IMG/VR virus record: IMGVR_UViG_3300047160_018755
Span: 64,001 to 128,000 of that record
Reading direction: 5' to 3' (one strand)
DNA: 64,000 nt
Source of the DNA: a virus
Shown: positions 392-64,000 of the stretch, piece by piece
How positions within the stretch are numbered: the stretch's first letter is position 1
How the letters are laid out: the number at the start of each line of letters is the position of its first letter
Program-made: the position numbers and the translations under genes
The notes under the pieces: generated by a model
Database searches by the model: none
Told to the model about the DNA's origin: nothing
The model's input: only the letters and a program-made list of their open reading frames with translations

Positions 392-3300
392 ATGTGGTAC
401 GACGAGAATGACGACGCGCATTTCGTGCCGGCCAGCACTCAGGACCTGATTCGTGAGCAGGCTTACTACGATGGGCACTTCTGCCCGGAGAAGGCGTGGC
501 TGCTCTCGGACTTCGACACCTGGGAGCGTAATCCCCACTACAAGGGCGAGCCCGTGCCGCACCCGGACGCGGACCTGGCCGACAACGAGGAGGCGCAGGC
601 CGAGGTGCCCAAGGTTGCAAACTGGGTGCCATTCTTCGAGGGCGAAGATGACCTCCCCTTCTGACGCGCTGTGTGAGGAGACCGGGCGCCCACACAACTA
701 CACCGCCGACCTGGAGTACGACGCGACGGGTCAGACCATCAACTGCGAGGACTGCGGCGAGCCGCAGCCGCAGGACGCCGGCAACTACGGTGACGCGACG
801 TTCCGCAAGCTGATGGACCTCGGCCTGCTGCTGCAAGACGGGGACCAAATGGTGGGCCTCAAGCTGTTCCTGGGCAGCATGGACCTGGAGACGCCAGCGC
901 TACGCAAACTTCGTGCCGAGATCGAGAAGTTCACCGCCCGCATCGAGGGCCTGACGCAGGCGGCCAAGGTCGCCACGGGAATGGAGTGACGCACGTGGAC
1001 ATCCGAGCGCAGCAATACGCCCGCCTGCTCGACCACGCCCACGCCGAGGCGCTGGCCCGGTCGCGTCTGTTCATCGGGTACCGGCGCCTCACCACAGTGG
1101 CCCTGGTTCGCATCAGGGACGCGCAGGACGAGTGTGAGCGCGACCGCTGCGCCCGTGTGGTCGGCTACCTCGCGCGGCGGCTTGCCCGCGAGCAGACGCG
1201 CCTCGACGAGGTGTTCTCTCACTTCCAGGATGGTGCGCAAGGATCTGCGCACCCTGCGTAACGAACTACGCAGAAAATCGCGCAGCGATCTACGCAGTCG
1301 GGGATCGAAACCGCACAGAATCAAGGCTTCGAGGTTGGCACGAAACGTGGATATCTCTGAGGCAGGAGGCAACGAAATGACGCGGACCAGGACAGACCGA
1401 TGGCACAACACGGGCGGCAACGGGCCGGCCGAGGCGGTGTGGTGCCGCAGCCGCAAGGGCCGCTCTGCGGTCGTGCAGGTGTACAGGTCCCACGACCTGC
1501 ACGCCGCCAAGACCTGCGTCCTGGAGCGCTGGGAGAACTTCAAGCAGACCGCCGTGGCAATCAGCGGTCTCTCGTTCAAGACCGCCAAGCGCCTCGGCGA
1601 CGAGTTCCTCGGCGTCAAGCCGCGCAAGAGCCGCGCGGGCCTCAAGAAGTTCAGCGTCGTCGGCTTCTATGTCGACAACAACCAGCCGCTCATCAGCTGG
1701 GAAACGTGCCTGACGCCGCAGGAGGCGGCGCAGAAGGCAAAGTACCGCCGCGATTCCGAGGTCAAGGTCGTGGAAGTTCTCCACGGTCACCGCAAGGGAA
1801 TTCTCACCAACGACGAGGTGCTGTGATGGCTACGGACTGGAAGAAGAGAGACGAGGAAGAGCGCAGCGAGCGCATCACCCTACACGACCTTGTGGGGCCG
1901 CTGGCCCAGCTACTGGGCGCCGGCTGGAGTGTCGAGGCGCCGCGCGAGGACGAGCCGAGCCTCCCGTCGTACTACACCCTGCACGGCCCGGACGGGGCCG
2001 AGCTTGGTCTGTCTGGCGGCACGTGGGGCAGCAAGGGCAAAATCACCATCACGGCGCACTTCAACGACCGCAAGGACGGCGTCACGTTCTGGTACCTGCC
2101 GTACAAGGTCGAGCGCCCGTCTATCTCTGTCACGGGCACTCGCGGCGCCCTCGTCGTCGCCAAGGAAATCGCCCGCCGCCTCCTGCCCGACTACATGCCT
2201 CTGCTCATCTCGTGCAACGAGGCGCGCGCCCGGTGGGAGACCCGCAAGCGCAACGGGCACGCCGTGGCCGTGAGCCTGGCCCACTACATCGGCGCGGCCG
2301 AGGCCAACATCGAGAGCGATGTGCGCAACAGCGACGGCAGCACGTACAAAATCAACGTCTACCGGTCGGAGGCCCTGGCCGGCTCCCACGTCGACGTCAA
2401 GGTGCGCGGCTCCGAGGACTCCGAGCAGAGCGTCCGCATCGACAACATCGACGTGCCGCCCCACGTGGCCGCCGAGCTTCTGGCGGTCCTGGTCCGCCAC
2501 CATCACGCCGTCAAAGAGGAGGACTAGATGCCGCTCATCAACCTGACCCCGTCCGAGGCCTGCTATCTGGCGGTCCTCGTGCGCGACCACGCCAACACCC
2601 CCGAGCGCCGGGCCATCTCTCCATCCGATGAGGCCGCCAACCGACAGCGTGACCTCGATCTGGCACTGGCGCACAAGCTCCTGGCCTCGGACGTGGCCTG
2701 CCGCCACTGCGCCGGGCTGCCCGGCTCCCCCTGCGAATACCACGAAAGGACCCGCTAACATGAGCGCAGCCATCGCCATCGATCTGTCCGAGGATGACAG
2801 CACGCCCATCCTGAGCGCCGAGACCCTCGCCTGGCTCGACGAGGAGGAGGAAACCGAGCTTCAGAAGCTCGCCCGCCTGGGGGCGCCCGTGGCCCTCATC
2901 TTCGCGCACCAGTGCGTCAGCAACGACGCCGGGTGGTGCACCGCCTGCCTCCGCTACCAGGCGGCCGGGGGTGCGCTGTGATTCGCTTCGGGCTGCACCT
3001 GTACCGCAATCTCTCCGACCTGGAGGGCGAGGGCCACAAGAGTCTCACGCCCGTTCGCCTTCAGGGCGAAACCACGAACGAGGAGTCCCTGCGCGCCATC
3101 CTCGACGGCGCTCTGGACGCCTACGGCACGAGCCTGAAGGACTTCGACCACCGCAGCGACGGGTGGGACCTCCGCCACCGCCAAGCGCGCTTCGCCAACT
3201 ACGTGGGCGCGCAGGAGGACGGCACCATCGACCCCGAGGGTACGTGGACCCTGGAGTTCGATCTGTTCGTGGCCGTCGTGGGCCACGACGGCACCCCCTA

Positions 3301-3895
3301 CCAGTGCCCCACCTTCGGCTGCCCCGAGGCGGACGACTGCGGTGTGGCCTGGGAGCCCGAGGACGAGGCGGCCGTCAAGGCCGGCCAGTTCGAGCCCAGC
3401 GAGTGTCTGGGCAAAGAGTGGACCGCCCGCTAACCCCAGCAAGGATCAGACCAAATGAAACTCTCCGACCTGACCGACAAGGCCGTCGTGCTCATCATCC
3501 AGCGCGACGTCAAGAACCCCAAGCCCGACCGGCGCAAGACCCGAGACTTCGCCTGCCTCGAAACCTGGAAGGCCGGCACCCGCCTGCTCTTCAAGAGGTC
3601 CCGAGCCCGCAACGAGGTGGGCCACGGCTACGTCGAGGCCAAGAGCCTCTACGGGTGGCTCACCGAGCGCGACCCCGGATTCGAGGCTCTCATCGATGCC
3701 TGCGAGAAGGCCCCCAGGACGCTCAGGAACGCGCTGTGGATCGCGGAGGAGGGCCGGGCCGTCACTCACCCCTCCGACGTCCTGGGCACGCTCCTGGTGC
3801 AGGGCAAGCTGTCCCTCGACGACATCGACGCCGCCGTCCTCGCCTACGAGGAGATGACCGAGGAAGAGCAAGACCACATCACCCACAAGCTGTAA
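392..3895 (+). other. Run of small co-oriented early hypothetical genes (392-664, 648-989, 986-1261, 1377-1826, 1826-2527, 2528-2758, 2760-2981, 2978-3433, 3455-3895)
   Basis: Abutting or overlapping stop-start junctions, GGAG-type RBSs, GC3-rich codons; no recognisable family. Confidence 0.65.
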
Positions 3896-3919
3896 ACCCC
3901 AAGCAAGGATCAAGCCATC

Positions 3920-4417
3920 ATGAAAACGACCATCCTGTTCCTCATCGCGCTCACCGTCGCCGCGTGCGACAACAGCCCTAACGACCCGCCCGTGACCCCC
4001 GTCCCCACCTGCGTGCCCGAGGGCATCGCCACCGGGGACACCTTCGAGGTCACGTCCTGCGGGGACGGCAAGACCGCCGCCTGCCGCATCAACGAGGTCG
4101 GCCCCGGCGGCGTCCTCGCCCCCTTGTGGGGATGCACCTACGGCGGCCTCCTCTGCGTCCAGGGCTGCGAGAGCGACGTCCAGCCCCCTTCGGACAAGCC
4201 GGCGCTCGATCCCTGCCTGTACGAGCTTACGAGCCGCTACCCGGACCACGACCAGGCATGCAAGTTGCTTCTCGATCCCAACTCCAAGGCATGCGCCGTC
4301 GAGTTGAGCTTCCCTGACGAGACTCTCGACCACCCGGCCGGGCCGGCGCTCTACAACGGCTGCGTGCACGCGGACGGCGTGTGCGTGCCTTCCTGCATCG
4401 GCCCCAACGGCATCTGA
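3920..4417 (+). CDS. Cys-rich lipoprotein
   Basis: MKTTILFLIALTVAAC signal peptide with lipobox; many Cys. Confidence 0.7.
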   Translation: MKTTILFLIALTVAACDNSPNDPPVTPVPTCVPEGIATGDTFEVTSCGDGKTAACRINEVGPGGVLAPLWGCTYGGLLCVQGCESDVQPPSDKPALDPCLYELTSRYPDHDQACKLLLDPNSKACAVELSFPDETLDHPAGPALYNGCVHADGVCVPSCIGPNGI

Positions 4418-4429
4418 AAGGAGATCATC

Positions 4430-5156
4430 ATGGCCACCACCTTCGTCACGCCCATGGTCCTCAAGGCCCGCAAGGCCTTGCGGCTCATCAACGCCCGCCT
4501 CAAGAAGGGGGACGTCAAGCTGGCCCCCGGCATCCCGTTCGATCGGCACGGCATGACCGTGTGCGCCCAGGCCGCCCTGGTGATCGCCCACAACCCCGAG
4601 GTCGACGCCGACACTGCCCTCCACGAGGACGAGCGCACCGTCGTCCAGATCTTGCGCGGGCACGGCTACACCCCGACCCAGATCGACCAGCTGGAGCTTG
4701 GCTTCGAGGACCGCTCCTACAGCTGGAACGGCAAGCCCCAGCCCAATCACCCCTTCTTCAAGCTCGGACGCAAGCTCCGGCTCCTGGCGAAGTCGTCATG
4801 AGCAACATGGGCTACTGTCGCTTCCAGAACACCGTGGGCGACATGGAGGACTGCGTCGATCATCTCGACGACGATCTGTCCGAGGACGAGCAGGAGGCGC
4901 GCAGGGAGTTCATCTCGATCTGCGTGCGCGTCGCCTCAGACTACGGGGAGCTTGACGAGTCATGAGCAGCCTCAAGAAGCTCGATAAGCAAATCTGGCAG
5001 GGATGCGAGTCGTACCAGGTTCTCGTCCCCGTGAAGTTCGACGTCAGGGACGGGGTCGTGGTGTCCGTCCAGCACCCCGCCTTCGAGGACGTCCAGGCCG
5101 CCTACGACGCCGCCCTTGCGGACCAGGAGGCGGGGCCGTCCCCCGTGACGCCATGA
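4430..5156 (+). other. Three small hypothetical genes (4430-4801, 4798-4965, 4962-5156)
   Basis: ATGA overlaps, coding-like codon use. Confidence 0.6.
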
Positions 5157-41121: not shown

Positions 41122-41904
41122 TCAGGGAGCGCCGACGATCGAATCCGCCATCACGTTGATGGCCCAGAAGTCGCTGGCGAGCCTCGGGTTCGTGAGGTAG
41201 GCGTACGGGATCGTGAAGTACCCGCCCATGCCCCAGCTCGCGCCCCAGCTGTTGCGGCAGACGAAGCGCTGAGTGGCGTCGTCGTAGCCCACGCAGAGGA
41301 CGGCGTGGCCGCCCATGACCCGCTCGCCCTTGGCCGGCATCGGGACGACGCCGGTCTGCGCGACAGCGTCACTCTCGAACGACTCGTAGACGGTGAATCC
41401 CAGAACGAAGGGCGTCTTCGAGACGATGCACGCCTTCATCGCGTCGAGCGTCTGCGGCACCGACTGGTAGTTGAGCGAGCGAGCCTTGAGAGCCTCGGTG
41501 TACGCCGCGGCGGAGGGCTTCGTGGAGAACGGGCCCGGATTCGCGTCGCTGTACGGCCAGAGCGTCTCGCTGCACACGCCGAGCGTGTTGATGGTCTTGA
41601 TGCCATCGCGGATCGCAGCGCCGGAGTCGGTCGACGTCGTGCCCTCCATGTCGCGCTCGTTGTAGTAGACGAACAGGCGCGAGACGAAGAAGTACGGGTG
41701 GAGCCCCTGCTTCAGAAGGTCGAACTGGATCGCTGCGGCGATGGCGTTCGCCGTGCAGCTGCCGAGCTGTCCCTGGTCCTGGATCTTGTGCGGACACATC
41801 TTCCGCAGGTCGAACTTCACCGGCAGAACCGTGCCCTCCGCCTTCTTGAAGACGTGGTCGCGGTGGTCTCGATGATCTGGCTTCCAGCCGTGCTTGCGTT
41901 TCAT
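41122..41904 (-). CDS. Papain-like C1A cysteine peptidase
   Basis: QDQGQLGSCTANA, GGHAVLCVGYDD, RNSWGASWGMGGY. Confidence 0.92.
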   Translation of the reverse strand: MKRKHGWKPDHRDHRDHVFKKAEGTVLPVKFDLRKMCPHKIQDQGQLGSCTANAIAAAIQFDLLKQGLHPYFFVSRLFVYYNERDMEGTTSTDSGAAIRDGIKTINTLGVCSETLWPYSDANPGPFSTKPSAAAYTEALKARSLNYQSVPQTLDAMKACIVSKTPFVLGFTVYESFESDAVAQTGVVPMPAKGERVMGGHAVLCVGYDDATQRFVCRNSWGASWGMGGYFTIPYAYLTNPRLASDFWAINVMADSIVGAP

Positions 41905-41912
41905 CGTGCTCC

Positions 41913-43023
41913 TCACTTCGCCCAGTCGGGCAGTCCGTTTTGTTCCGCGAGGTCTTCGACAGCGTACGCCGCCGCCTCGTACTTGTTCCCGAAGTAGGCT
42001 TCCATCGACGCCTGCGTGACGCCGATCTTGAAGAGGTCACGGAAGGGGAAGTGCACGATGGACTGCCACGCGTACTTCACCCACGACACGCCGAAGAAGA
42101 GGTTCGAGTCGTCCTGCGCGATGTGCACCCACTCGTGCACGCGAACGAACGGGTCGACGTCACCGGTCGGCTGCGCGTCGAGCGTCCAGTACCAGATCGT
42201 GGAGAAGAAGGGCCAAGGGATGGTCATCGCGCCCCAGCCGTGGTTCCACATGAAGCGGCCGACGGGGCCGCCGATCTCCAGCTCGATGACCCGGCTCTTG
42301 TGCGGGGGCTGGTTCTTGCGAACGCGCTTGATCCAGTTGAACATCAGTCGATCTCCAGTTCCTCGCCCTTGTCCTTGACCTCGATCTTCTCGGGCGCGGG
42401 CAGATCGGTATTGATGGCCTGGCGCTGGCGGCTCATCTCGGCCGTGTCGCCGCCGCCGACGGAACCGCCGTACTTCAGGGTCTGCATGTCGCTGTACGCG
42501 CGACCGCCGACGAACGCCGTGTAGATGCCGGTGACGCCCATGACGAGGTTGCCGAAGGCCGTCAGAGGCAGCCAGAAGCCGCCTGCGATGAGCACAGCCA
42601 CGCAGAACACCATCCCCGCGAACTTCTGGGACGAGAGGTGACCGAGGTCGAACCCCTTCTTGTCCTTGTTCTTGCCCATCAGCCGCCGAACACGATCTTC
42701 AGGAAGATGCCCAACGCCGCGAAGAAGAGGGACCCCGCAGTCGCCCCGACCTTGAGGATCAGCATCCGGCGCTCCCGACGCCTGGCTCGATCTGCTTCGA
42801 GATGCGCCTCAGCCTGCGCCTTGACCTTCTCCGTGGTCTCCAGCACAGTCACACGCTCGTGAAGCGACGCCACGGCGTCCAGCTTCTCCGCCAGCATCTT
42901 CACACCGTCGTCGATGCGGGTCTTCACGACCCCCAGATCGACCTTGACGTCTGTCACACCCTCTTCAAGGCGTGCGATGCGGTCCTCGTAAACTTCAACG
43001 AGCGCTGGGTTCTGGGGCGGCAT
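41913..43023 (-). other. Membrane-protein trio (41913-42344; 42344-42679 holin-like 2-TM; 42679-43023 coiled coil with C-terminal TM)
   Basis: Hydrophobic segments; late motif 6 nt before 43023. Confidence 0.5.
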
Positions 43024-48023: not shown

Positions 48024-50144
48024 TTAACGATTCTTTTTGGCGCGACGCTTTTCTCCGATTCGGAGCATCGTGCGGTTGTGGTTGATGCTGTTGAAGCCCT
48101 TGTCCAGCTCGTCGGCTTCCAGATCTTTCTTGGTGAGCGAGAGAGACGCCTTCTTCAGGTCCTCGCTGCGCTTGAGCGGGAGCGCGCCATGGAAGCGCTT
48201 GCTGGTGACCTTCGCGGCCTCCGGCTTCGGAGCCTCGGGCTTGACGGCTTCCTTCTCGCCGCGACGGAGCGGCATCGCGCCGTGCATGCGAGCGCTGCTG
48301 GTCTGACCCTGCTGCTTCCACTGCGGAGCACCCGCGATCGCCATCTGCGGCTTCGGCGAGTGGAACATCGACATCAAGCCGCGGAGGAACCCGACGCCGC
48401 CGCGCTGCTTGGAGGCAGCCGCGAGGTTGAGGTTGTCGCGCACGCCGCTGAGAGCGTCCGCGCCGCCACCAGCCGGAACCGGGCTGGCCTTGAGGCGCTG
48501 ACCGAGCGTCTGGGGCTTGGCCGGAGCCGCGGCAGGCGCCGCCAGATCCGACACGTCGATGTCGACGGACTCGGGGCTGCCGCCCGGACGCAGAGCCTTG
48601 ACGTCCGCGAGGCTGTTGGCGACAGCCGGGTGAGCCGGAGCCGCGCGCTTCGCCTGGATCGCCGCGAGGTCGCCCTTGAGCTTCTGCACCTTGGCCGCAG
48701 GAGACGGACCAGCCGCCTTCGTCGCCGGAGCGGGAGTCGCACCCTTCGCAGGCGCAGCGCCCTTCGCCGGGGCCGCGACCTTGTGCTTGTCACCACCGCC
48801 CTGGCCGACGGGCTGCTTGCCGCCGACGCCCTTGCCCTTCGGAGCCTTCGCCTTTGAGGCGCCACCCACGCCCGGAAGAGCCATCTGGTCCTTGCGAAGC
48901 TCCGTGCCCTTCTTGATCTCGCCGCCCGAGCCCTGCTTGGCCACGGAAGCGTCCTTGCCAGCCTTCGGGAGCTTCGTGCCCTTCACGGCAGCGGCGGGAG
49001 CCGCGTGCTGCGCGGGGATGGTCTCACCACCCTTCGCCACCGGAGCCATGCTGTCCTTCAGAGCGGAGGGCATGTTCTTCTGGCTCGCGTGACCCGGGCC
49101 GCCGTAGCGCTTGTCGCCAGCGCCCATCTCGGCTTTCGCGTTCGGGATCTCACCAGCCACGGACACCGTCGGACGGCCCATCGCGTGGACCGGCTTGCGC
49201 AGCGGCTTGGGGGCGCCGACGACAGCCGACGTTCCACCCATCGACGGGTGCGCGCCGAAGACCGACTTCGCGCCACCCAGCTCCGCGTTGGCCTGGTGGA
49301 CCGGCGTCACGGGGGCGGGCTTCGGGGGAGCAAGCGCAGCGGCGCTCGACGACGGCATGTGCTTCGCGATCGCCTCCAGCTCGCCCTTCTTGTGGTTGAC
49401 GGTGCCGTTCGCGATGGCGTTCGCCGTGGCGTAGGCCTTGGCCTTGCCTTCCTTGTCGTGACCGTACTCGTCCTTGAGCTTGTGCATCGTCTTCTCGGAG
49501 ATGCCCTCGGGGGTCTTCTTCCCCAGCGGCGCGCCCTGAGTCACGCCGTCCTTGTGCTCCACGTACTCGCTGTGACCGTCCTCGTCGTGGTCACCGTCAC
49601 CATCGGGATCCTTGTGCTTGCCGTACACGTGCTCGTAGCCGCACGCCTTGCACATCTCGGACTTCTCCGCCATCGCCAGCGGGGCGGTGTCGCCGCCACC
49701 GGCCGGACCGACGCCAGGGCCGGGACCGTAGCCGAGCTGCGCGTTCTTCTGGAGGGTCGAGATGCACTTGCAGGCACCGTTCACGTCGGGACCACCGCAG
49801 AGAGGGCACAGCTCGTGCTTCTCCAGCTTGCGTTCCTTCGTCGACGCCTCGCGGGCGCGCATCTCACGGATCTGAGTTTCGGTCTTGACCAACACCGCCT
49901 TCAGGTCGGTTGCGAACTTCTGAAGGGGCGCGGAAAGCTTGGATTCGTTTTTATTCATTTTGGGTGTGTACTCGCCGTAGCATCCCAGACAGGTCCGTGA
50001 CCCGTCCTTATGAGGGGTTGAATCTTTGCTTCCACACTTCGGACACGCCTCGTCGGTCTTCAGTTTCCCGTCTCGACGAGCCGCGGTGATCCCGGCATTC
50101 TCTTTACGACGTGCCGCCAATTCGTCTTCAGGCTGCTTGGGCAT
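48024..50144 (-). CDS. Low-complexity Ala/Pro/Lys/Gly-rich late protein with Zn ribbons, probably a head internal protein
   Basis: CPKC..CLGC, CPLC..CKC, CKAC; repeated L/M-x-K-[S/N/D/A/G] motifs. Confidence 0.6.
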   Translation of the reverse strand: MPKQPEDELAARRKENAGITAARRDGKLKTDEACPKCGSKDSTPHKDGSRTCLGCYGEYTPKMNKNESKLSAPLQKFATDLKAVLVKTETQIREMRAREASTKERKLEKHELCPLCGGPDVNGACKCISTLQKNAQLGYGPGPGVGPAGGGDTAPLAMAEKSEMCKACGYEHVYGKHKDPDGDGDHDEDGHSEYVEHKDGVTQGAPLGKKTPEGISEKTMHKLKDEYGHDKEGKAKAYATANAIANGTVNHKKGELEAIAKHMPSSSAAALAPPKPAPVTPVHQANAELGGAKSVFGAHPSMGGTSAVVGAPKPLRKPVHAMGRPTVSVAGEIPNAKAEMGAGDKRYGGPGHASQKNMPSALKDSMAPVAKGGETIPAQHAAPAAAVKGTKLPKAGKDASVAKQGSGGEIKKGTELRKDQMALPGVGGASKAKAPKGKGVGGKQPVGQGGGDKHKVAAPAKGAAPAKGATPAPATKAAGPSPAAKVQKLKGDLAAIQAKRAAPAHPAVANSLADVKALRPGGSPESVDIDVSDLAAPAAAPAKPQTLGQRLKASPVPAGGGADALSGVRDNLNLAAASKQRGGVGFLRGLMSMFHSPKPQMAIAGAPQWKQQGQTSSARMHGAMPLRRGEKEAVKPEAPKPEAAKVTSKRFHGALPLKRSEDLKKASLSLTKKDLEADELDKGFNSINHNRTMLRIGEKRRAKKNR

Positions 50145-50673
50145 CTGAAATCTCCGAAGAAAAGATTCGGGCTCCCTTGGACAGGTTTTGCTCTGCCCAC
50201 AGTGGCTGAAGATTGGTGAAGTGACAGGCCTGAAGAAATTGTCCCCGATCTGTCAAGTCGAACTTGGCCAGTGGCTTGATGTGGTCAATGTGCCACTCAC
50301 CATAGTTGCCCCAAGACATTCCCGGCTGAAACTTCGATTCCAAGTGAATCTTCAGCTCAGTGACGGTACAGCCGAGATCACGAACGGCCGACCCTGCGCG
50401 ACCCCGTTTCACAATCGAGTTGATTCGAGAGCGGAGGCTGTCAGAAATACGAACCTGAGGATCCGTAGCTCGTTTGCGGATGTGGTATGCCAAGGTCCTA
50501 GCAAAAACGCGGTCGCTGTTGGATCGGTAGTACGACTTCTTGCGCTTGCTCTCGCACGTCTTGCACGCCGAAGAACGCCCGTCCCGCTTCTGCTTGTCCA
50601 CGGAAAAATCCGTCAACAGGAGCGATTCTTCACACCTGGGGCAGATTTTGTTCCGTACAGACAAAGATTCCAT
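50128..50673 (-). CDS. HNH homing-type endonuclease
   Basis: CPRC..CKTC; LGCT..ELK.HLESKF..GMSW.NYGEWHIDHIKP...HFTNLQPLWAEQNLSKG; low GC. Confidence 0.9.
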   Translation of the reverse strand: MESLSVRNKICPRCEESLLLTDFSVDKQKRDGRSSACKTCESKRKKSYYRSNSDRVFARTLAYHIRKRATDPQVRISDSLRSRINSIVKRGRAGSAVRDLGCTVTELKIHLESKFQPGMSWGNYGEWHIDHIKPLAKFDLTDRGQFLQACHFTNLQPLWAEQNLSKGARIFSSEISDAQAA

Positions 50674-50713
50674 ATCACCTTCCAAGATTGGAATCCCCAA
50701 CGGAACAAAACGC

Positions 50714-51337
50714 TCACTTATCGGCCTTCTTCAGGACGCGCCCGATGACGTCCTTCAGCTCCGTTGCGAACTTCCGCATCAGATCTCGTTCCATCGGCGT
50801 GAGCGGTGGCTTCGCCGTGTGGTGCTCCAGCGGCACGGTCCCCTTCACGGGAGAGTCGTGCAGCTCGTCGCCGAAGTGGAGGCTGACGTAGCCCTTGCCG
50901 GGGAGGTGCGTGTAGAAGTCCTTCGGCTGCGTCGGCGAGTAGTGCATCTCCGGCTTCGACACGTGGTGCTTGCCGGCGTTGGGGCCGTGCGTGTAGAGCA
51001 GCTCGTGCTTGCCGTCCTGCGAGTACATGATCGCCTCTTGACCGTACTTGCGGCCGAGCGCGTACATGTTCTCGCGTGTGGGGTTGTGGATGATGAAGCT
51101 GTTCTCCGGCGCGCCGTACGATCCGTGTGTGGGCTCGTGGTGCAAACCAAGAGCTTTCAGGTCCGCGCTGAGGGCTTCGTTGCCACCTTCGGCCGTTGGG
51201 AAACGCGGCGACTCCGCCGTCATGATTCCAACCGTGTGCCCCTTGTTGAACAACGGATGGTCCGCAACCTGCGGCGGAACGGTGTGGTACAGGTTGTGTT
51301 CGTTGTTTTCGATTTCGTCTTTGCGCAGCGGTCGCAT
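50714..51337 (-). CDS. DUF3293-like domain late protein
   Basis: GIMTAESP...GSYGAPENSF...LGRKYGQEAI. Confidence 0.55.
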   Translation of the reverse strand: MRPLRKDEIENNEHNLYHTVPPQVADHPLFNKGHTVGIMTAESPRFPTAEGGNEALSADLKALGLHHEPTHGSYGAPENSFIIHNPTRENMYALGRKYGQEAIMYSQDGKHELLYTHGPNAGKHHVSKPEMHYSPTQPKDFYTHLPGKGYVSLHFGDELHDSPVKGTVPLEHHTAKPPLTPMERDLMRKFATELKDVIGRVLKKADK

Positions 51338-52371: not shown

Positions 52372-52695
52372 ATGGACGAAGATGTCGCTTTCACGGTCGA
52401 AGTCTTCCAGAAGGTCCTGGCGAACGAGAAGCACCGCCTGGCTGTCGGCGCCGTCCTCAGGCGCTACATCCACGCGCAGCTCGCGAAGGGCATCGAGCCC
52501 GACCACTACCGCATGAAGTGGATGCACAAGGGTATCTCGCGGATGATCCACGAGCTGGAGCTGTTCGGCCGGGAGTTCAACGCCGCTCACCCGAGGGACA
52601 AGTTCTCCAAGGGCGACATGATCGACGTCGCCGAGTCAGCCGTGCTGACCCTGCGGAACTACATCGACGCGGAAGAGGACCCCGACAGCAACTAG
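52372..52695 (+). CDS. Hypothetical protein
   Basis: AATCTC 6 nt before ATG, divergent from 52336. Confidence 0.65.
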   Translation: MDEDVAFTVEVFQKVLANEKHRLAVGAVLRRYIHAQLAKGIEPDHYRMKWMHKGISRMIHELELFGREFNAAHPRDKFSKGDMIDVAESAVLTLRNYIDAEEDPDSN

Positions 52696-53543
52696 CTGTT
52701 GAGGTCGCTGACGGCCTTGTCGAAGAGGGCGGGGGCGACTTCCTTCTGCCACAACTCGACGGCTTCCTCGGCTGCCTTTTCGAGGATGTTCACCGCGGCG
52801 TTGCCCGGGTGCTCCCACTTCGCCATGCCCGACTGCGATTCGCTCGCCACGCGGAAGGTGAGGATCGAGCGCTTGGTCTTCCCGTCCTTGCCCTTCTTCT
52901 GGTAGATGGAGACGCCCTGGAGGAACGGGATGCCCGACTTCTGTCCGGGGCTCTTCGAGCCCTGCATGACCTCGCCCACGGGACCGCGGCGCTGGCCGGC
53001 GCCTGGGTCCTGCTTGAGGGGCGCGTTGGAGATCGTGAACGAGTGGAGCTTGCCGGACTTGTCCGTGCCGTCCGCGTTCTTCTCGATCTTGCCGAAGGGA
53101 ATGCCGCGAGCCTTCAGCTCTTTCTTGACAGCGTTGACAAGATCTTGCTGAGCAGCAGTACGCCCAGTACGACTATCATCGCCTTGAGGCCCCATAGGAC
53201 CGTGGTTGAATGGAACAGTGATGTACTTGCCGTTCTTACCCGACTTCGCTTTCGGCGAGGCGAGGAGGTACTTGAGCATGTCGAACGCAGATTGACCATC
53301 GTCGATCCATCGCACTTTGGCGTCGAGGGTGACCAGCCAGGTGTCGTCGCCGACCTTCTCCGTGCGAAGACCGTCCTGGTACATCTTGCGGCGCGTGTGG
53401 AGCTTGTCCGCGGCCATCTCCTTCGCTTTCGCGACGACCATCTTGGACAGCTCTTCGCCTGCGTCGTTGGCGATCTTCTTGAGCGCCGGACCGACCTCCA
53501 TCAGCTCGTTCAGCTGACTGAGATCAACGTTTATAGAGAACAC
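52692..53543 (-). CDS. Neck / head-completion-like protein
   Basis: KAKEMAADKLHTRRKMYQDGL...YITVPFNHG...FRVASE...WEHPG. Confidence 0.55.
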   Translation of the reverse strand: MFSINVDLSQLNELMEVGPALKKIANDAGEELSKMVVAKAKEMAADKLHTRRKMYQDGLRTEKVGDDTWLVTLDAKVRWIDDGQSAFDMLKYLLASPKAKSGKNGKYITVPFNHGPMGPQGDDSRTGRTAAQQDLVNAVKKELKARGIPFGKIEKNADGTDKSGKLHSFTISNAPLKQDPGAGQRRGPVGEVMQGSKSPGQKSGIPFLQGVSIYQKKGKDGKTKRSILTFRVASESQSGMAKWEHPGNAAVNILEKAAEEAVELWQKEVAPALFDKAVSDLNS

Positions 53544-53965
53544 GCGACACCATCGGCTCGCTGAGCCGTTCGAATGCGGTGACAACAGGCGCACACCAAC
53601 TCACACTTTGCCAGCTCTTCTTTAAGAGCTTCCATCGAATGTGTCCATGAAACCATCTGAGCAATTCCAAACCTCTTCACGCCACGCACGTGATCGAAGT
53701 CCATTGCAACACCAGGGAAACGCCTACCACAGTCGGTGCAAGGCTTTGACTTAAGCTCTGCCACCAGACCGCGCTTCTCCAAGATCTTTACCTCAGCCGC
53801 TTCTGTCATGCGATGGGTTCGCTTGTACTCGCGATGACACGGGAAGCACCACTGGTAAACGACCTTTCCATTACGGATGTAGCTTTGAAACTCTTCCACA
53901 GGTTTAGGAACCGAGCATTGAGCGCAGATCCTCTTGCCATCTACAGTCTGAACACGCCTGGGCAT
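53531..53965 (-). CDS. HNH homing-type endonuclease (paralogue of 9530-9952)
   Basis: PCTDCG...MDFDHVRG.K...KCELVCACCHRIRT. Confidence 0.85.
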   Translation of the reverse strand: MPRRVQTVDGKRICAQCSVPKPVEEFQSYIRNGKVVYQWCFPCHREYKRTHRMTEAAEVKILEKRGLVAELKSKPCTDCGRRFPGVAMDFDHVRGVKRFGIAQMVSWTHSMEALKEELAKCELVCACCHRIRTAQRADGVACSL

Positions 53966-53989: not shown

Positions 53990-55264
53990 TTAACTGCTCG
54001 AAGGCTCGCGGGAGGAGACGGGATGACTGTTCGGGCCGATGATGGGCGCGTCCTTGTCCTGCGCCTGCACCATGCCGGAGTCGACCTGTTTCCAGCCCGT
54101 GCTGCCGTCACCGTGCTGGACCTTCACCTTGTCGCCGACCTGTGAGCCGAGCGGGAAGTTCATCTTGTGGTGCGGGGGCGTACCTTCGATCGGGTTGCTC
54201 GACTTCTCCAGTCCGTAGTCCTTGAAGCAGCCCTTGCAGGTCTTGGAGCCGTCCTTGTGCGGGATGAACTCCTTCTCCTCGCAGTGCGGGCAGGCATCTT
54301 CCGACTTCGCCATCGCTTGCTTGATGACGTCGGGCTCGTCGTCCATCGGAGGACCATCGCCCATCACTTCCTTGCCGAGGAGCACGACGCCCTGGACGAG
54401 GCCGATGATGGCCGCGTACGCATCGGGAGCGTACTGCTGGAGACGCTGGATGTCGGGCAGCTGCTTGCGGATGTTCGTGAGCGCGTCCGTGACCTTCTTC
54501 TTGACGGACTCGGTCTGCTTCTGACCGTCGCCCGCAGCCTGCTCGTCCTGCTTGCTGGAGTCCTCGGCCGCGTCATGGAGCTGCGACTCCATGTCCTGGT
54601 TCATGTTCTCCATGTCGCCCGCGGCGTGAGTCATCTCGGGCGAGGCCGGCTTGGGATCGTCACCCAGAACATCGCCCACATGCTTCATGTCGGTGAAGCC
54701 CGGGTCGTGCTGGACAGCGAAGCCCGCGTTGGGACCGGAGAGCTTCGCCGTGTTGTGCTCCAGGACTTTCTGCGTGTCCTTGCCGCCGGCCGCCTTGTGC
54801 TCTGGCGGCTTGGGCGTGTCGGCCTTGGCGAGGTACTCGTCCGTCAGCTTCTCCTGCTCGGACTTGGGGGCGTCGACCGCGCGCTGGTACTCGGCCGCCA
54901 TCGCGTCTTGGTCCCACACCAAAATCTGGTTGCCGCCGCGGAGCTTTGCGACCACGAGGGCCTTGGCGGAGTCGGACATCTGCATGCCCACGCCCACGGA
55001 GACGGTGGCGCCCACCAGGTTCGAGTACTGCTTCGCGATCGAGGGCATGTCGGCCAGCTTGCTGGCGTCGACCACGATGCGACCCTCGTCGCCACCCATC
55101 TCGATCACCGAGCCGCCGTTGTTCACGGCGAAGCTCTTCCACAGCTCGTTGCCGGCGTTGATGGCCTGGTCGACTCGACGAACCTCACCCACGTCGTTCG
55201 CGAGCACTGCTCGCCCGACGCGGCGGCCGATCTTGTCGCCGTCCCAGCAAACGAAAACGTCCAT
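53990..55264 (-). CDS. mCpol (minimal CRISPR polymerase) domain protein with linker, Zn ribbon and C-terminal domain
   Basis: MDVFVCWDGDKIG...GGSVIEMGGDEG...TVSVGVG...ALVVAKLRGGNQI matches mCpol (DGD and GGD motifs). Confidence 0.75.
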   Translation of the reverse strand: MDVFVCWDGDKIGRRVGRAVLANDVGEVRRVDQAINAGNELWKSFAVNNGGSVIEMGGDEGRIVVDASKLADMPSIAKQYSNLVGATVSVGVGMQMSDSAKALVVAKLRGGNQILVWDQDAMAAEYQRAVDAPKSEQEKLTDEYLAKADTPKPPEHKAAGGKDTQKVLEHNTAKLSGPNAGFAVQHDPGFTDMKHVGDVLGDDPKPASPEMTHAAGDMENMNQDMESQLHDAAEDSSKQDEQAAGDGQKQTESVKKKVTDALTNIRKQLPDIQRLQQYAPDAYAAIIGLVQGVVLLGKEVMGDGPPMDDEPDVIKQAMAKSEDACPHCEEKEFIPHKDGSKTCKGCFKDYGLEKSSNPIEGTPPHHKMNFPLGSQVGDKVKVQHGDGSTGWKQVDSGMVQAQDKDAPIIGPNSHPVSSREPSSS

Positions 55265-55274
55265 GTCCCTAAGA

Positions 55275-55613
55275 TTACGCCCGGTAGTGCTTGCAGGCCG
55301 TATTGCTGCACTCGATGGTTCGGAAGAGAATGAAGGCGTTTCCCCCACAAACGAGGCACGTGTGCGGGTACCTGGACGACTTCTGCTTCTGCTCTTCGTC
55401 CACCAAGATCGCAGCCACGCAGGTGTAGTGCCACGTCCCTTGACGGAAGCCCGCGGTCATGGTAAGGTGATGGGCTTGAGGATCGACAGTGTAGGTCGGC
55501 TTCCAGGCGCACTCGATGACGATCTGGGCCATGTCGTAGTAGTAGCCGACCACCCGTCCAAGCTTCTTCTCCCCGCCAGGCTCCTCCCGGAACCACACGA
55601 CGTACCCCGCCAT
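55275..55613 (-). CDS. Hypothetical protein with C-terminal Zn ribbon
   Basis: CLVC...CSNTAC. Confidence 0.6.
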   Translation of the reverse strand: MAGYVVWFREEPGGEKKLGRVVGYYYDMAQIVIECAWKPTYTVDPQAHHLTMTAGFRQGTWHYTCVAAILVDEEQKQKSSRYPHTCLVCGGNAFILFRTIECSNTACKHYRA

Positions 55614-55710: not shown

Positions 55711-56484
55711 ATGGGTTCAACACCGATTTTGATCGTCAGTGGCAAGGCCGGTTCGGGCAAAGACACGGTCGCCGCGTTCATCGCGGAGAAGTACAACGGC
55801 GTCTGCATCGCGCAGGCAGATCCGATGAAACGCCTGGCTGGAGCGCTCTTCGGGTTCACCGAGACCCAGCTCTGGGGACCGAGCGAATGCCGGAACGCGG
55901 CCACCAAGTGCACCCCCGTCAACCCCGACGCCATGGACACCGTCCAGCTCGCTCGGGACTTCTGCGAGGAGATGGGGCTCGGCAACGGATGGGAGGCGCG
56001 CAAGCTGCTCGACTGGTACGAGGGCCAGTTCGCCGAGTACCTGAAGAACGATGTTATCGCGCCGCGGACCGTGCTCCAGACCATGGGCACCGAATGGGGC
56101 CGCGAGATCAAGCCGTCGATGTGGATCGAGAAGGCCGTCGGAAACGCCCGCAAGCTGGTCGAGGGTGGTTTCGGCTACGCCCGCGGCGTCGGGCTGCGGC
56201 ACGACAAGGACAAGTCCTTCGACTACGCCATCATCACGGACGGCCGGTTCCGGAACGAGATGCTGGCCGTGCGCTTCCTGGGCGGCGCGGCGCTGCGCGT
56301 CATCCGCCCCTCCAAGGCGGCTCAGACCGTGGGCATCGCAGGCCACCGGAGCGAGAAGGAGCTTGACACGATCCCCGAACACTTCTACAGTGGGACCATC
56401 ATGAACGACTCCACCTTCGACGAGCTGTACGAGCGCGTCATGGACGAGATGGAGTTCCACTACTTCGACACCCGCGCACGGTAA
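55711..56484 (+). CDS. Deoxynucleoside monophosphate kinase
   Basis: SGKAGSGKDT, ADPMKR, PRTVLQTMGTEWGR, ITDGRFRNE, HRSE. Confidence 0.9.
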   Translation: MGSTPILIVSGKAGSGKDTVAAFIAEKYNGVCIAQADPMKRLAGALFGFTETQLWGPSECRNAATKCTPVNPDAMDTVQLARDFCEEMGLGNGWEARKLLDWYEGQFAEYLKNDVIAPRTVLQTMGTEWGREIKPSMWIEKAVGNARKLVEGGFGYARGVGLRHDKDKSFDYAIITDGRFRNEMLAVRFLGGAALRVIRPSKAAQTVGIAGHRSEKELDTIPEHFYSGTIMNDSTFDELYERVMDEMEFHYFDTRAR

Positions 56485-56488
56485 ACCC

Positions 56489-57664
56489 ATGAAAAACTTC
56501 CCCACACTGTACCAGAAGACCAACGCCGGGGCGATCCAGCAATGGACCATCTCGGTCGAGGGCACGACCATCAAGACCGTGCACGGCCAGGTGGGAGGCA
56601 AGCTCCAGGAGGCCCTCGACACCATCAAGGAGGGCAAGAACATCGGGCAGTCGAACGAGACGACGCCCGAGATGCAGGCCGAGCGCGAGGCGAAGGCGAA
56701 GTGGACGAAACAGCTCAAGAAGGGCTACGTCGACACGATCGCCGCCGCTGAGGCCGGCGAGGTCGACGCCATCATCGAGGGCGGCCTCCCGCCCATGCTG
56801 TCGCCGAACAAGTCGCACCCCAAGGACGACCTGCTCGCCAAGACCGCGAAGTTCCCGGCCTACGGCCAGCCGAAGCTGGACGGCATGCGCTGCATCGCCA
56901 TCATCGAGGGCGGCAACGCCACCGTCTGGAGCCGCACGCGCAAGCGCATCCCCACGATCCCGCACATCGTCGATGCTCTCGCCAAGATGTTCCCGACCGA
57001 GCAGCGTGTTGTGCTCGACGGCGAGCTGTACAACCACCAGTACAAGGACCACTTCGAGGATCTGATGTCGATCCTACGCGGCGACGGGCCGGACCCCGAG
57101 GGCGAGTACCTCAACGCCCAGTTCCACGTCTACGACTGTCCCGAGCGCTTCGTGCGGGCGTCGCAGCACACGCAGGACGCGCCGTTCGAGCACCGCAACC
57201 GTGCCGTCAGCGCGATGCTCGGCGGCCTCGACCCCCAGTCGCCCATCAAGCGCGTCGAGACGGTCGCCGTCGAGACCATGCAGCAGCTGCTCCTGTTCTA
57301 CGAGGAGTGTCTGACCCGCGGCTACGAGGGCTCGATGTACCGCTCTCCCGAGGGCAAATACGAGGCCGACAAGCGCTCGAAGTTCCTGCTCAAGATGAAG
57401 GAGTTCATCGACCAGGAGTTCCCGATCGTCGGCGCCAACACCGGCCGCGGGAAGGACGCGGACGTGGTGACCACCTTCGACGTGCAGCTCCCGAACGGCA
57501 AGGTCATGCCGGTGCGCTCGCCAGGGACCTACGCCAAGAAGCGCGAGTTTCTGAAGAAGCCCCAGCTGTGGCAGGGGAAGCAGCTCACCGTGAACTTCAA
57601 GCGGTGGACCGCCGACGGGATGCTCTACATCCCGACCGGGAAGGGGATCCGAGACTACGAGTAA
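56489..57664 (+). CDS. ATP-dependent DNA ligase
   Basis: QPKLDGMRC, LDGELY, YEGSM, LLKMK, OB domain; WGR-like N-terminus. Confidence 0.92.
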   Translation: MKNFPTLYQKTNAGAIQQWTISVEGTTIKTVHGQVGGKLQEALDTIKEGKNIGQSNETTPEMQAEREAKAKWTKQLKKGYVDTIAAAEAGEVDAIIEGGLPPMLSPNKSHPKDDLLAKTAKFPAYGQPKLDGMRCIAIIEGGNATVWSRTRKRIPTIPHIVDALAKMFPTEQRVVLDGELYNHQYKDHFEDLMSILRGDGPDPEGEYLNAQFHVYDCPERFVRASQHTQDAPFEHRNRAVSAMLGGLDPQSPIKRVETVAVETMQQLLLFYEECLTRGYEGSMYRSPEGKYEADKRSKFLLKMKEFIDQEFPIVGANTGRGKDADVVTTFDVQLPNGKVMPVRSPGTYAKKREFLKKPQLWQGKQLTVNFKRWTADGMLYIPTGKGIRDYE

Positions 57665-62393: not shown

Positions 62394-63998
62394 TTAGGTC
62401 GTTACCCACAACGAGTTGATGATCAAATCGAGGGGCTCGTTGCCGAGGCGGACAGACACCTTCTGCAAGCGATCCATCGTGGGAATCGTGTTGATTCCGT
62501 AGCGCTGGCAGATGAGGCGCACGTCACCCGGAACGATTTTCCCAAACCAAGTCTTCAGCTCCTCAGCAACAGACGCCGGCACCCGCGGCAACGACTTGAG
62601 CTTCGTTGCGGTGTCGAGCTGGTGGAAGTTCTCGTCGAGGCACCACGCGCGCAGGTAGTACGGCACGAACGAGTTGCCGTCGTGGCCAGGATCGAAGCTC
62701 GGGCCGGCGAAGGCCGAGCCGTGATCGATGAGCTGCACGTCACCCTTCGGGTCGACCATCACGTTCTGGCCGTGCGAGTCCGGGTTGCCGAGGATGTAGT
62801 CGATCACGGCCCACTTGTGGACCAGACCCTCGTGCAGGTACTTGTGCAGGACGCTGCGAGCAGTGCCCGGCTCCTTGCGCTCCATCTCGTCGAGCGTCTT
62901 GAAGTCGAGAGCGAGCAGGTGGAGCGCGGAGTACATCTTATCGTCGATGATGACAAGCTCCGCGCGCGGGTACCACTTGCCGATCTCCCACTGCTTCGCG
63001 ATGTGGTAGAACGCGGCCTCGCGAGCGTTGGGGTTCGACGGGTCCTCCTTCGAGCCTGCGGCTCCGCCAGCTCCACCGCTGCCGGACTTGAGCAACAGCG
63101 TCGTCTTCGTCTGCTCATCGTAGGCGATGAACGATCCCTTCGAGTGCTTGCCGCCGAGCGCGACCGGGAACACGAAGTGCGTCTTGAACGCACGCTCGAT
63201 CATTCGCGCCACATCCTCACCCTCAAGATGCGCGGTCACGACCTTCGAAGCGGTCGGCGTCGGCTCCATGATCGGATCCGACTTCGTCAGCCCGCAGATG
63301 GCGTGCAGGGCCTTCAGGTTCTCTTCGCTGCACGGCAGGCCGTACGCCTGGAGCGCAGCACGATCCACGTCACCATCCTCGAAGTAGAGGGCCTGGCGCA
63401 TCGACTCGTCCGAGATGAGCGCTCCGTTGGCGAGGAACTTGGCTGCCTTGAATGCGCGGTGGTTCGCCGGCTCGAAGCCGAGCTGCATGGTCACGATCGG
63501 ATGCTTCGCCACGCCCTCCATCGGAGCCGAGGCGGCCGGGGTGAGCAGATCGAGTGCCTTCGAGAGCATCTTCTGGAGGTGCTGCGGGCCGAAGGCGGGG
63601 TTCGACATCACGCCGGCACGAAGGAGCGTGTCCGGGTGCAGGGCGTGGGTCGCCTCGTCAGCCAGCGTCGGAGACACGCTCTTGTTGCGCAGGAGCGCCC
63701 CGATGAGGCCCGGCGCGGCCGAGGTCGGCAGCAGCTGGGCCTTGGGGAGCAGGTCCTTGAAGATCTCGGCCAGAGCCGGCGTCGACAGACCTTGGTTTGA
63801 CTCCAAGGCGCGCTCCGCGAGCGCCACCACGTGGGGCTCGCCGCGGTCGGCAGCGCGCTGGACGAGGGCCCGGAGGGAGCCGTAGGGCAGCTCCAGGTGC
63901 TCCACAGCGCGCGAGCCGAGGTCTCCTGACCCGCCGCCAGGGACCGTCAGGGCCGTCTTCAGGGCGTGATCCAAGACATCCGCGGCGGCCCTCTTGTG
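62394..63998 (-). CDS. Large late protein with C-terminal HipA/PI3K-like kinase domain, truncated at the window end
   Basis: LLLKS..., REAAFY, DYILGNPDSHGQNVMV, LIDHGSAF; frame open to the window edge. Confidence 0.7.
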   Translation of the reverse strand, partial: HKRAAADVLDHALKTALTVPGGGSGDLGSRAVEHLELPYGSLRALVQRAADRGEPHVVALAERALESNQGLSTPALAEIFKDLLPKAQLLPTSAAPGLIGALLRNKSVSPTLADEATHALHPDTLLRAGVMSNPAFGPQHLQKMLSKALDLLTPAASAPMEGVAKHPIVTMQLGFEPANHRAFKAAKFLANGALISDESMRQALYFEDGDVDRAALQAYGLPCSEENLKALHAICGLTKSDPIMEPTPTASKVVTAHLEGEDVARMIERAFKTHFVFPVALGGKHSKGSFIAYDEQTKTTLLLKSGSGGAGGAAGSKEDPSNPNAREAAFYHIAKQWEIGKWYPRAELVIIDDKMYSALHLLALDFKTLDEMERKEPGTARSVLHKYLHEGLVHKWAVIDYILGNPDSHGQNVMVDPKGDVQLIDHGSAFAGPSFDPGHDGNSFVPYYLRAWCLDENFHQLDTATKLKSLPRVPASVAEELKTWFGKIVPGDVRLICQRYGINTIPTMDRLQKVSVRLGNEPLDLIINSLWVTT

Positions 63999-64000
63999 GC

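Follow-up and report, generated by a model that had tools for sequence, protein, structure and literature searches.

The mCpol enzymes have so far been studied as bacterial sentinels: in the Panoptes defence, the constant nucleotide output of such an enzyme, OptS, guards the cell against phage sponges. The active site of one of them, KpOptS, consists of Asp6 and Asp57 (PMC12657218). Here we describe a gene of this kind that is carried by a phage. It lies in a stretch of 64,000 nucleotides (nt), hereafter the window, which comprises bases 64001-128000 of the complete 182,279-bp virus record IMGVR_UViG_3300047160_018755, a record with direct terminal repeats at its ends. The sequencing runs containing the stretch are soil metagenomes and, judged by its sequence, the virus is a 182-kb soil phage and kin of Myxococcus phage Mx1. 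The gene encodes a protein of 424 amino acids (aa), in which an N-terminal mCpol domain is joined to a carrier part. We read this protein as a predicted active, late-made cyclase on a virion-module carrier that is probably cargo of the capsid, and we hold this reading with about as much belief as doubt. The enzyme is of a known kind; what is new is its phage-encoded, virion-module, carrier-borne form. A phage-encoded mCpol is described in no paper of the literature searched, and the existing database labelling of the family consists of automatic Pfam labels only.

Proteins that phages load into their capsids form a second point of comparison. The internal proteins IPI-III of phage T4 are targeted to the capsid and processed by the prohead protease, and T4 gp21 prefers sites with Glu before the cut. 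The survey by Iyer, Burroughs, Anand, de Souza and Aravind (2017) names T4 Alt and P1 DdrB as capsid-targeted internal proteins processed by the prohead protease (PMC5512222). There, polyvalent proteins are predicted to be packaged and injected, rare GGDEF cyclases are reported among their domains, and interference with host nucleotide signalling is proposed for these cyclases; a text search of it returned no mention of mCpol (PMC5512222).

The N-terminal domain was assigned to mCpol by profile, sequence and structure comparisons. The Pfam profile mCpol (PF18182; cut-off 26.4 bits) matched residues 5-115 over its positions 2-112 of 114, with an E-value of 1e-12 and a score of 48.9 bits, and it was also found above the gathering cut-off in 63 of 63 long relatives scanned. 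When the PDB was searched by sequence, the sole meaningful matches were the Panoptes OptS/mCpol entries 9nwn, 9mnr and 9pd0, and the PADLOC match was weak (E 7e-4) and concerned the mCpol part of a CARF_HEPN_mCpol model. An AlphaFold2 model of the protein, built from 29 family members, had a predicted local distance difference test (pLDDT) score above 95 across residues 1-130. The results of the Foldseek comparison of this model with the PDB showed that the six best matches were all OptS/mCpol chains (9pd0, 9mnr, 9nwn), with template-modelling (TM) scores of 0.79-0.89 normalised to the target, the superposition on the OptS crystal structures giving TM 0.85-0.89; the best match had a root-mean-square deviation (rmsd) of 1.6 Å over 116 columns at 24% identity. 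GGDEF and class III cyclases ranked behind OptS at far lower TM scores, and GTP cyclohydrolase III and Y-family polymerases also stood lower in the list. The fold is a minimal single palm of the RNA-recognition-motif type, about 115 residues long and without the other Cas10 domains. A first-pass annotation of the window, made from the letters alone, had called the domain a Cas10-like minimal palm of the mCpol type. Profile, fold and catalytic residues bear this call out, and the structural comparison that it had proposed returned OptS/mCpol as the best matches. The strings that it had quoted (WDGDKIG, MGGDEG, SVGVG and ALVVAKLRGG) are all present in the translated protein, the first within FVCWDGDKIG at residues 4-13 and the others at residues 56-61, 89-93 and 102-111, respectively.

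In a gap-free alignment with OptS, Asp6 and Asp57 of KpOptS correspond to D8 and D59, and the residues of the catalytic motifs are D8/D10 and G57-G58-D59-E60. A set of 101 homologs, the most distant about 30% identical, has D8 in 91 members and D59 in 99. Near invariant in the same set are D8, G9, D10, G13 and G57-G58-D59-E60, as well as S89, G91, G93, K107, R109 and G110. The main reason to expect an active nucleotidyl cyclase is this strong purifying selection acting on the catalytic residues, and the domain is apparently catalytically competent, as predicted from its conserved residues. Since an apparently working mCpol-type synthase is encoded here, the phage may make immune-type nucleotides itself.

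To estimate the size of the family, a profile of the N-terminal 148 residues was searched against 1.84 billion proteins. It found 1458 cluster representatives (clusters at 50% identity), 473 of them with E<=1e-30. The mCpol domain starts within the first 40 residues in 148 of the 150 best proteins, and the proteins are 190-1297 residues long. Within its own genome the gene stands in the virion module, and a gene order that runs from a virion structural protein (phrog_1004) and two small proteins to the mCpol gene, and then through a 300-aa protein, a tail-terminator-like protein and a DUF3293 protein to sheath and tube, is kept in Mx1 and in 29 uncultured viral contigs. The placement of the gene among virion genes, which the first-pass annotation had asserted, therefore holds, the neighbours being neck-like, tail-terminator-like, sheath and virion structural proteins. 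We also counted how often the gene is present in loci anchored on the sheath gene that extend over the neck gene and 2.2 kb or more beyond it on the upstream side. The mCpol gene was found in 16 of 17 such loci. The locus L089 (IMGVR_UViG_3300049489_000327, positions 2300-5070) keeps the usual succession of kinase, virion structural protein and neck gene and lacks the mCpol gene between them; it is a natural deletion or replacement. Because L089 lacks the gene between the same neighbours, the gene is not needed for assembly; it is thus close to core for the clade, yet dispensable for assembly. The related loci span 36-70% G+C, hence the clade extends well past myxobacterial hosts.

The start of the gene is marked by a signal that it shares with structural genes. 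The first-pass annotation had placed the open reading frame (ORF) at 53990-55276 under a late AATCTT motif. The minus-strand ORF is present, but its upper end is not as claimed: the gene begins with the ATG at 55264, and 55276 is the first base of AATCTT. A longer ORF with a GTG start at 55348 was rejected, because it would overlap the upstream ORF, which ends with a stop codon at 55275-55277, and because the homologs begin with MDVF. The motif itself is a genuine signal. The whole genome has 64 copies of AATCTT, where the 59 permutations of the hexamer average 8. ORFs of at least 60 aa begin 3-25 nt downstream of 34 of these copies, and 27 of the 34 are on the strand of the structural genes. 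The commonest gap is exactly 6 nt before an ATG or GTG, and these starts have no Shine-Dalgarno sequence; the sites with longer gaps carry one. The genes so preceded include those of the head polyprotein, neck, sheath, tube and large tail proteins. The mCpol ortholog has the motif in front of it in 15 of 30 related loci (G+C 40-66%), and in 13 of these the gap to the ATG is 6-8 nt. AATCTT is probably a -10-like element of a late promoter, since 6 nt is the gap that a -10 element leaves before a transcript starting at the A of the ATG, and the mRNAs driven by it look leaderless, with that A as their first base. We infer the late timing of the mCpol gene from the set of genes that carry the motif, so that of the earlier claim the shared signal stood as an observation and the word "late" as a deduction. 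In relatives the sequence GTCAAG often occurs a few bases upstream of AATCTT.

Behind the palm domain, the protein consists of modules separated by linkers (Table 1). The helical and the C-terminal modules recur in the consensus of long family members, and the segment between them is variable: it is a zinc ribbon here and other domains in relatives, namely GNAT in 13 of 63, DUF5661 in 8, ART-PolyVal (E 4e-21), NUDIX or ParB_N. These inserts were placed at the position of the zinc ribbon by their Pfam coordinates and by gaps in the locus matches. The present protein is made up of mCpol and a zinc ribbon as its only recognisable domains, and relatives add further enzyme domains. A search with residues 221-424, which reached close relatives only, found no full-length homologs lacking mCpol, and PHROGs holds no family for the 424-aa protein. 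The zinc ribbon (CPHCEEKEFIPHKDGSKTCKGC) is a copy of the first ribbon of a 706-aa protein encoded at 48024-50144 on the minus strand (E 3e-11). That protein is rich in Ala, Gly, Pro and Lys, has more CxxC pairs and no family match, and its gene is just upstream of the sheath gene. The ribbon alone is repeated; no second copy of the C-terminal module was found in the genome.

Three sites of the form [LMV]xK↓[AS], where the arrow marks the candidate cut, stand at the ends of the ordered modules of the model and are conserved inside otherwise variable linkers. The motifs LAK-A, MAK-S and LEK-S, which the first-pass annotation had seen at domain boundaries, are thus present where it put them and conserved in the 101 homologs. 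Sites 2 and 3 are candidate protease sites. For an estimate of enrichment, the proteins of the genome were grouped by module and the motif counts compared with a composition-corrected expectation by a Poisson test. In the head and neck module proteins, [LMVIF]xK[AS] was observed 43 times against 19.9 expected (2.17-fold, p 4.5e-6). Tail proteins had a ratio of 1.16, and the remaining proteins one of about 0.9. When K was replaced by E, D, Q, T or N the ratio was about 1.0, without excess. The largest excesses were found in the portal, in the product of the gene immediately upstream of that of the capsid protein, in a protein of 331 aa from the neck region, in the NUDIX-region/kinase protein and in the mCpol protein itself. 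The Pfam profiles Phage_capsid and Peptidase_S78 detect neither a capsid protein nor a protease in the phage, and both were identified by homology to Mx1. The major capsid protein begins with M-S-D-L-I-A-E-L-Q-S-L-T-K↓A, and the Mx1 protein has L-R-K↓A at that place. The N-terminal region of a 1437-aa head protein (positions 137444-141757 of the record, minus strand, outside the window) resembles the Mx1 "putative prohead protease". The linker sites, the motif enrichment and the N-terminus of the capsid protein fit processing by the head protease; because a head-maturation protease works inside proheads, such processing of the linkers would mean packaging. The packaging and injection proposed in the first-pass annotation are thus supported indirectly, by the conserved linker motifs with their enrichment in head-module proteins, by the polyvalent-type cargo domains of relatives and by the late-gene signal held in common with structural genes.

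The 1437-aa protein ends in a canonical GGDEF domain (PF00990, E 5.8e-12), the cyclase of Mx1 being a separate 243-aa "nucleotide cyclase" gene. Together with mCpol, the late module of the phage therefore has two palm-type cyclases. A PI3/PI4-kinase-like protein is encoded at 62394-64000 on the minus strand; it forms the C-terminal portion of a 1055-aa ORF, which runs on to position 129561 of the record. The upstream part of this ORF matches the C-terminal region of a 1479-aa Mx1 "NUDIX hydrolase", and the two are separate genes in Mx1. In the 1055-aa ORF, x-K-[A/S] was observed 6 times against 2.5 expected.

From these observations the following course of events may be proposed. The mCpol cyclase, tethered via cleavable linkers to a helical module, a variable insert and a C-terminal beta module, would be made alongside the virion proteins from the common AATCTT late signal and, most likely, be loaded into the capsid as cargo. 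The head-maturation protease would cut it there at the [LMV]xK↓[AS] sites, and the cyclase would be released into the next host along with the DNA, where it would join nucleoside triphosphates into a cyclic di- or oligonucleotide ahead of any phage gene expression. We infer enzyme activity, product, proteolysis, packaging, delivery and target pathway alike. No 2TM or CARF family (Pfam, PHROGs) was found in the neighbours, namely the HNH protein, the neck protein, a small zinc-finger ORF and the deoxynucleoside monophosphate (dNMP) kinase. A scan of the whole phage genome found no PilZ receptor, and it found no SAVED receptor either, the latter a weak negative because the control genomes were also blank. 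With no adjacent effector and no PilZ or SAVED protein found in the phage, it is presumably a host protein that reads the signal.

Several points weigh against the capsid-cargo reading. Made late, the enzyme could do its work in the producing cell and never enter a capsid. The absence of the gene from L089 fits cargo, and equally any accessory role. The enrichment of the K-motif is statistical in nature, and a mild excess (1.63) was also seen when K was replaced by R. For the carrier half, neither Pfam nor PHROGs gave anything usable, and the ESM Atlas search of residues 221-424 returned an uninformative score of 0.76 and no recognisable fold. Finally, the runs containing the stretch are soil DNA metagenomes only, and no RNA run matched.

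Of the other explanations, one, proposed by the first-pass annotation as a topping-up or jamming of nucleotide signalling, is that the injected mCpol serves counter-defence, which is possible but in our opinion doubtful. The cyclic nucleotides that it writes would silence Panoptes effectors during the action of phage sponges or nucleases or, in an alternative form, flood or mis-signal the receptors of the cyclic-oligonucleotide-based antiphage signalling system (CBASS) or of type III CRISPR. The fold is nearest to Panoptes OptS by Foldseek, yet at just 24% identity to it. Relatives have polyvalent-type cargo domains, and Iyer et al. suggested interference of this sort for phage GGDEF domains (PMC5512222). 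Circumstantial support comes from Myxococcus xanthus, in which an island with CBASS and type III-B CRISPR blocks phage Mx4 and leaves Mx1, the carrier of a homolog, unrestricted, and its authors suggest undiscovered countermeasures (PMC11506125). However, typical anti-defence genes are sporadic and located in accessory regions, whereas this gene is near-core at a fixed locus in phages of 36-70% G+C. Moreover, no evidence here indicates hosts that carry Panoptes, and no sponge turned up, although no search was aimed at sponges. That the injected mCpol writes an immune-type cyclic nucleotide within seconds, thereby silencing or mis-triggering Panoptes, CBASS or type III CRISPR, we take to be a little less likely again; if true, it would be the first counter-defence that synthesises a signal instead of degrading or sequestering one. 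The first-pass annotation had presented this as a new counter-defence mode, but it has a precedent, the same logic having been proposed by Iyer et al. for GGDEF domains in polyvalent proteins (PMC5512222).

We give a similarly low weight to an active but unpackaged enzyme that works late in the producing cell, perhaps together with the GGDEF cyclase. Its role would be to reset the second-messenger physiology of the host (motility, exopolysaccharide, development, superinfection exclusion) or to time assembly or lysis. This would agree with the late-looking regulation and with the second cyclase, of the GGDEF type, in the head polyprotein of the same phage, and the blank PilZ and SAVED scans (the SAVED controls also being blank) leave room for a host protein as target. 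On the other hand, it is hard to see why a free cytoplasmic enzyme should have conserved carrier modules and linker motifs, and the N-terminal position of the cyclase and the exchangeable cargo domains resemble packaged polyvalent proteins.

It is improbable that the palm domain performs a non-cyclase chemistry, such as nucleotidyl transfer to a protein or DNA end (Thg1-type), or that the protein is a nucleotide-binding component of the neck or of head completion. The gene is indeed located between head-completion and neck genes, and the palm superfamily does include non-cyclase enzymes (GTP cyclohydrolase III, Y-family polymerases); but the OptS cyclases are by far the best structural matches, the complete cyclase motif set is conserved, and L089, which lacks the gene, argues against an essential structural part. 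That the mCpol domain is a degenerate, inactive relic is hardly credible, since its motifs for catalysis and nucleotide binding hardly vary among 101 homologs and the family has 473 clusters at E<=1e-30.

Table 1. Features of the mCpol locus, with positions in the window
Feature	Position	Strand	Remarks
Coding sequence, 424-aa mCpol-carrier protein	53990..55264	minus	ATG at 55264, stop codon 53990-53992; homologs share the start Met
mCpol palm domain, residues 1-118	54911..55264	minus	Pfam, PDB sequence match to OptS, AlphaFold2, Foldseek, conservation
Two-helix extension, residues 119-148	54821..54910	minus	Ends in near-invariant E-Y-L-x-K↓A (site 1)
Disordered acidic, Pro-rich linker, residues 149-220	54605..54820	minus	pLDDT 36-54; poorly conserved
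Helical carrier module, residues 221-305	54350..54604	minus	Helices 221-301, pLDDT 70-89; kept in family consensus
CxxC...CxxC zinc ribbon, residues 323-350	54215..54298	minus	From sequence; variable insert position of the family
C-terminal beta module, residues 356-424 (...GDKVKVQHGDG...HPVSSREP)	53993..54199	minus	Model strands 379-417; conserved
Site 1, L-A-K↓A, residues 145-148	54821-54832	minus	Y144 in 96/101, L145 in 97/101, K147 in 94/101 homologs
Site 2 (candidate), M-A-K↓S, residues 318-321	54302..54313	minus	At the end of a short helix (M-A-K-S-E); K320 in 76/101, A/S/G in 76/101, following E in 74/101 homologs
Site 3 (candidate), L-E-K↓S, residues 352-355	54200..54211	minus	K354 in 86/101 homologs
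AATCTT motif of the mCpol gene	55271..55276	minus	6 nt upstream of the mCpol ATG; common to structural genes
AATCTT examples	62395, 61092, 59942, 55276, 53977, 52348	minus	
Further AATCTT examples	48008, 45438, 43035, 31579, 22589, 21190	minus	
Neck-type protein gene (phrog_16819)	52692..53543	minus	Downstream of the mCpol gene in Mx1 and 27/29 viral loci
HNH endonuclease gene (phrog_2255, E 4.5e-27)	53531..53965	minus	Between mCpol and neck genes

The neighbouring genes were also analysed. The AlphaFold2 model of the neck-type protein of about 300 aa had a pLDDT of 77. Compared by VIA-align, its best match was the neck chain 9mu2_P of SaPI1 with Z 9.6, the next match having Z 5.7, and the two aligned with an rmsd of 3.3 Å over 101 of 109 residues. 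Foldseek gave no significant match with the same model, and profile searches of the neck-like and the terminator-like neighbours against PDB sequences gave no match. The HNH gene between mCpol and neck is absent in the relative loci L004-L006 and present in L007 and L016. Because their presence differs among close relatives, the HNH genes are regarded as mobile homing-type elements, and this one is outside the mCpol system. Two HNH/endonuclease VII-type genes in all are inserted in the neck and tail module of the window, the other being at 50128-50700 on the minus strand.

The dNMP kinase and an ATP-dependent DNA ligase are encoded at 55711-57664 on the plus strand, opposite to and in the middle of the late structural block. 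This cassette is conserved in several relatives and located elsewhere in Mx1, and it varies within the kept gene order. The DUF3293 protein (50714-51337, minus strand) is weakly similar to the S-adenosylmethionine lyase family (E 2.8e-4); its gene is kept between the terminator-like and the sheath genes in most relatives, and it may be another virion-module enzyme. A papain-family cysteine protease (Peptidase_C1, E 1.2e-17) is encoded at 41122-41916 on the minus strand, among tail-side genes.

The significance of the predicted capsid-cargo cyclase lies in where it is found. Here an mCpol-type enzyme is near-universal and active-looking in a large clade of 100-200-kb soil phages, and its gene stands within the module that builds the particle, on a carrier into which other host-modifying enzymes are swapped. 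This points to phages, too, as writers of such nucleotide signals. Mx1 and Myxococcus xanthus provide a tractable system in which virion delivery of second-messenger synthases, the product and the host pathway can be tested. For a little-studied phage group, the analysis also yields candidates for the head-protease motif and for the late promoter.

Mx1 is the only cultured phage that carries the family, as found by tblastn with three family members; a megablast search of 10 kb against cultured phages gave no match. Its ortholog is WNM70340.1 (OR576727.2, 33963-35369), annotated as "hypothetical protein". It stands at the same place in the module and the flanking genes are 28-47% identical, although the ortholog itself has just 27.6% identity over residues 1-298.

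Compared with OptS/mCpol of Panoptes (PF18182; 9mnr, 9pd0, 9nwn; PMC12657218, PMC12657230, PMC13577387), the phage enzyme is the same minimal Cas10-like palm of about 115 residues, with the same fold, both catalytic Asp positions kept, and Asn36 at the place of N34 of KpOptS. Unlike OptS, it is encoded by a lytic-type phage in the structural module and not in a bacterial defence operon, it is fused N-terminally to a carrier of about 300 aa, it has a full GGDE where OptS has AAD and, at 24% identity, it belongs to a large clade of its own (473 clusters, E<=1e-30). The two Panoptes types (OptS with OptE in type I; mCpol with CARF-TM in type II) have an operon effector, S-2TM-beta or CARF-TM, and none adjoins the gene here; on the evidence of its sequence and neighbourhood, nothing ties the phage mCpol to Panoptes.

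The polyvalent proteins, as set out in PMC5512222, likewise have enzyme domains on one polypeptide encoded among virion genes, and the ART-PolyVal, GNAT, ParB_N and NUDIX domains of the relatives are named there in or beside them. They differ in that a single enzyme domain is present here on carrier modules specific to the family, and none of the MuF, portal or zincin peptidase domains to which polyvalent proteins are fused in that paper was detected in the mCpol-carrier protein. With internal proteins of the T4 Alt and P1 DdrB type, the mCpol-carrier protein would share late synthesis, as deduced here, a short linear motif at the module borders that recurs in the capsid propeptide and other head proteins, and a predicted delivery together with the DNA. 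The candidate cut follows Lys here (x-K↓A/S) and Glu in the case of T4 gp21, and the payload, unlike theirs, is a predicted nucleotide cyclase.

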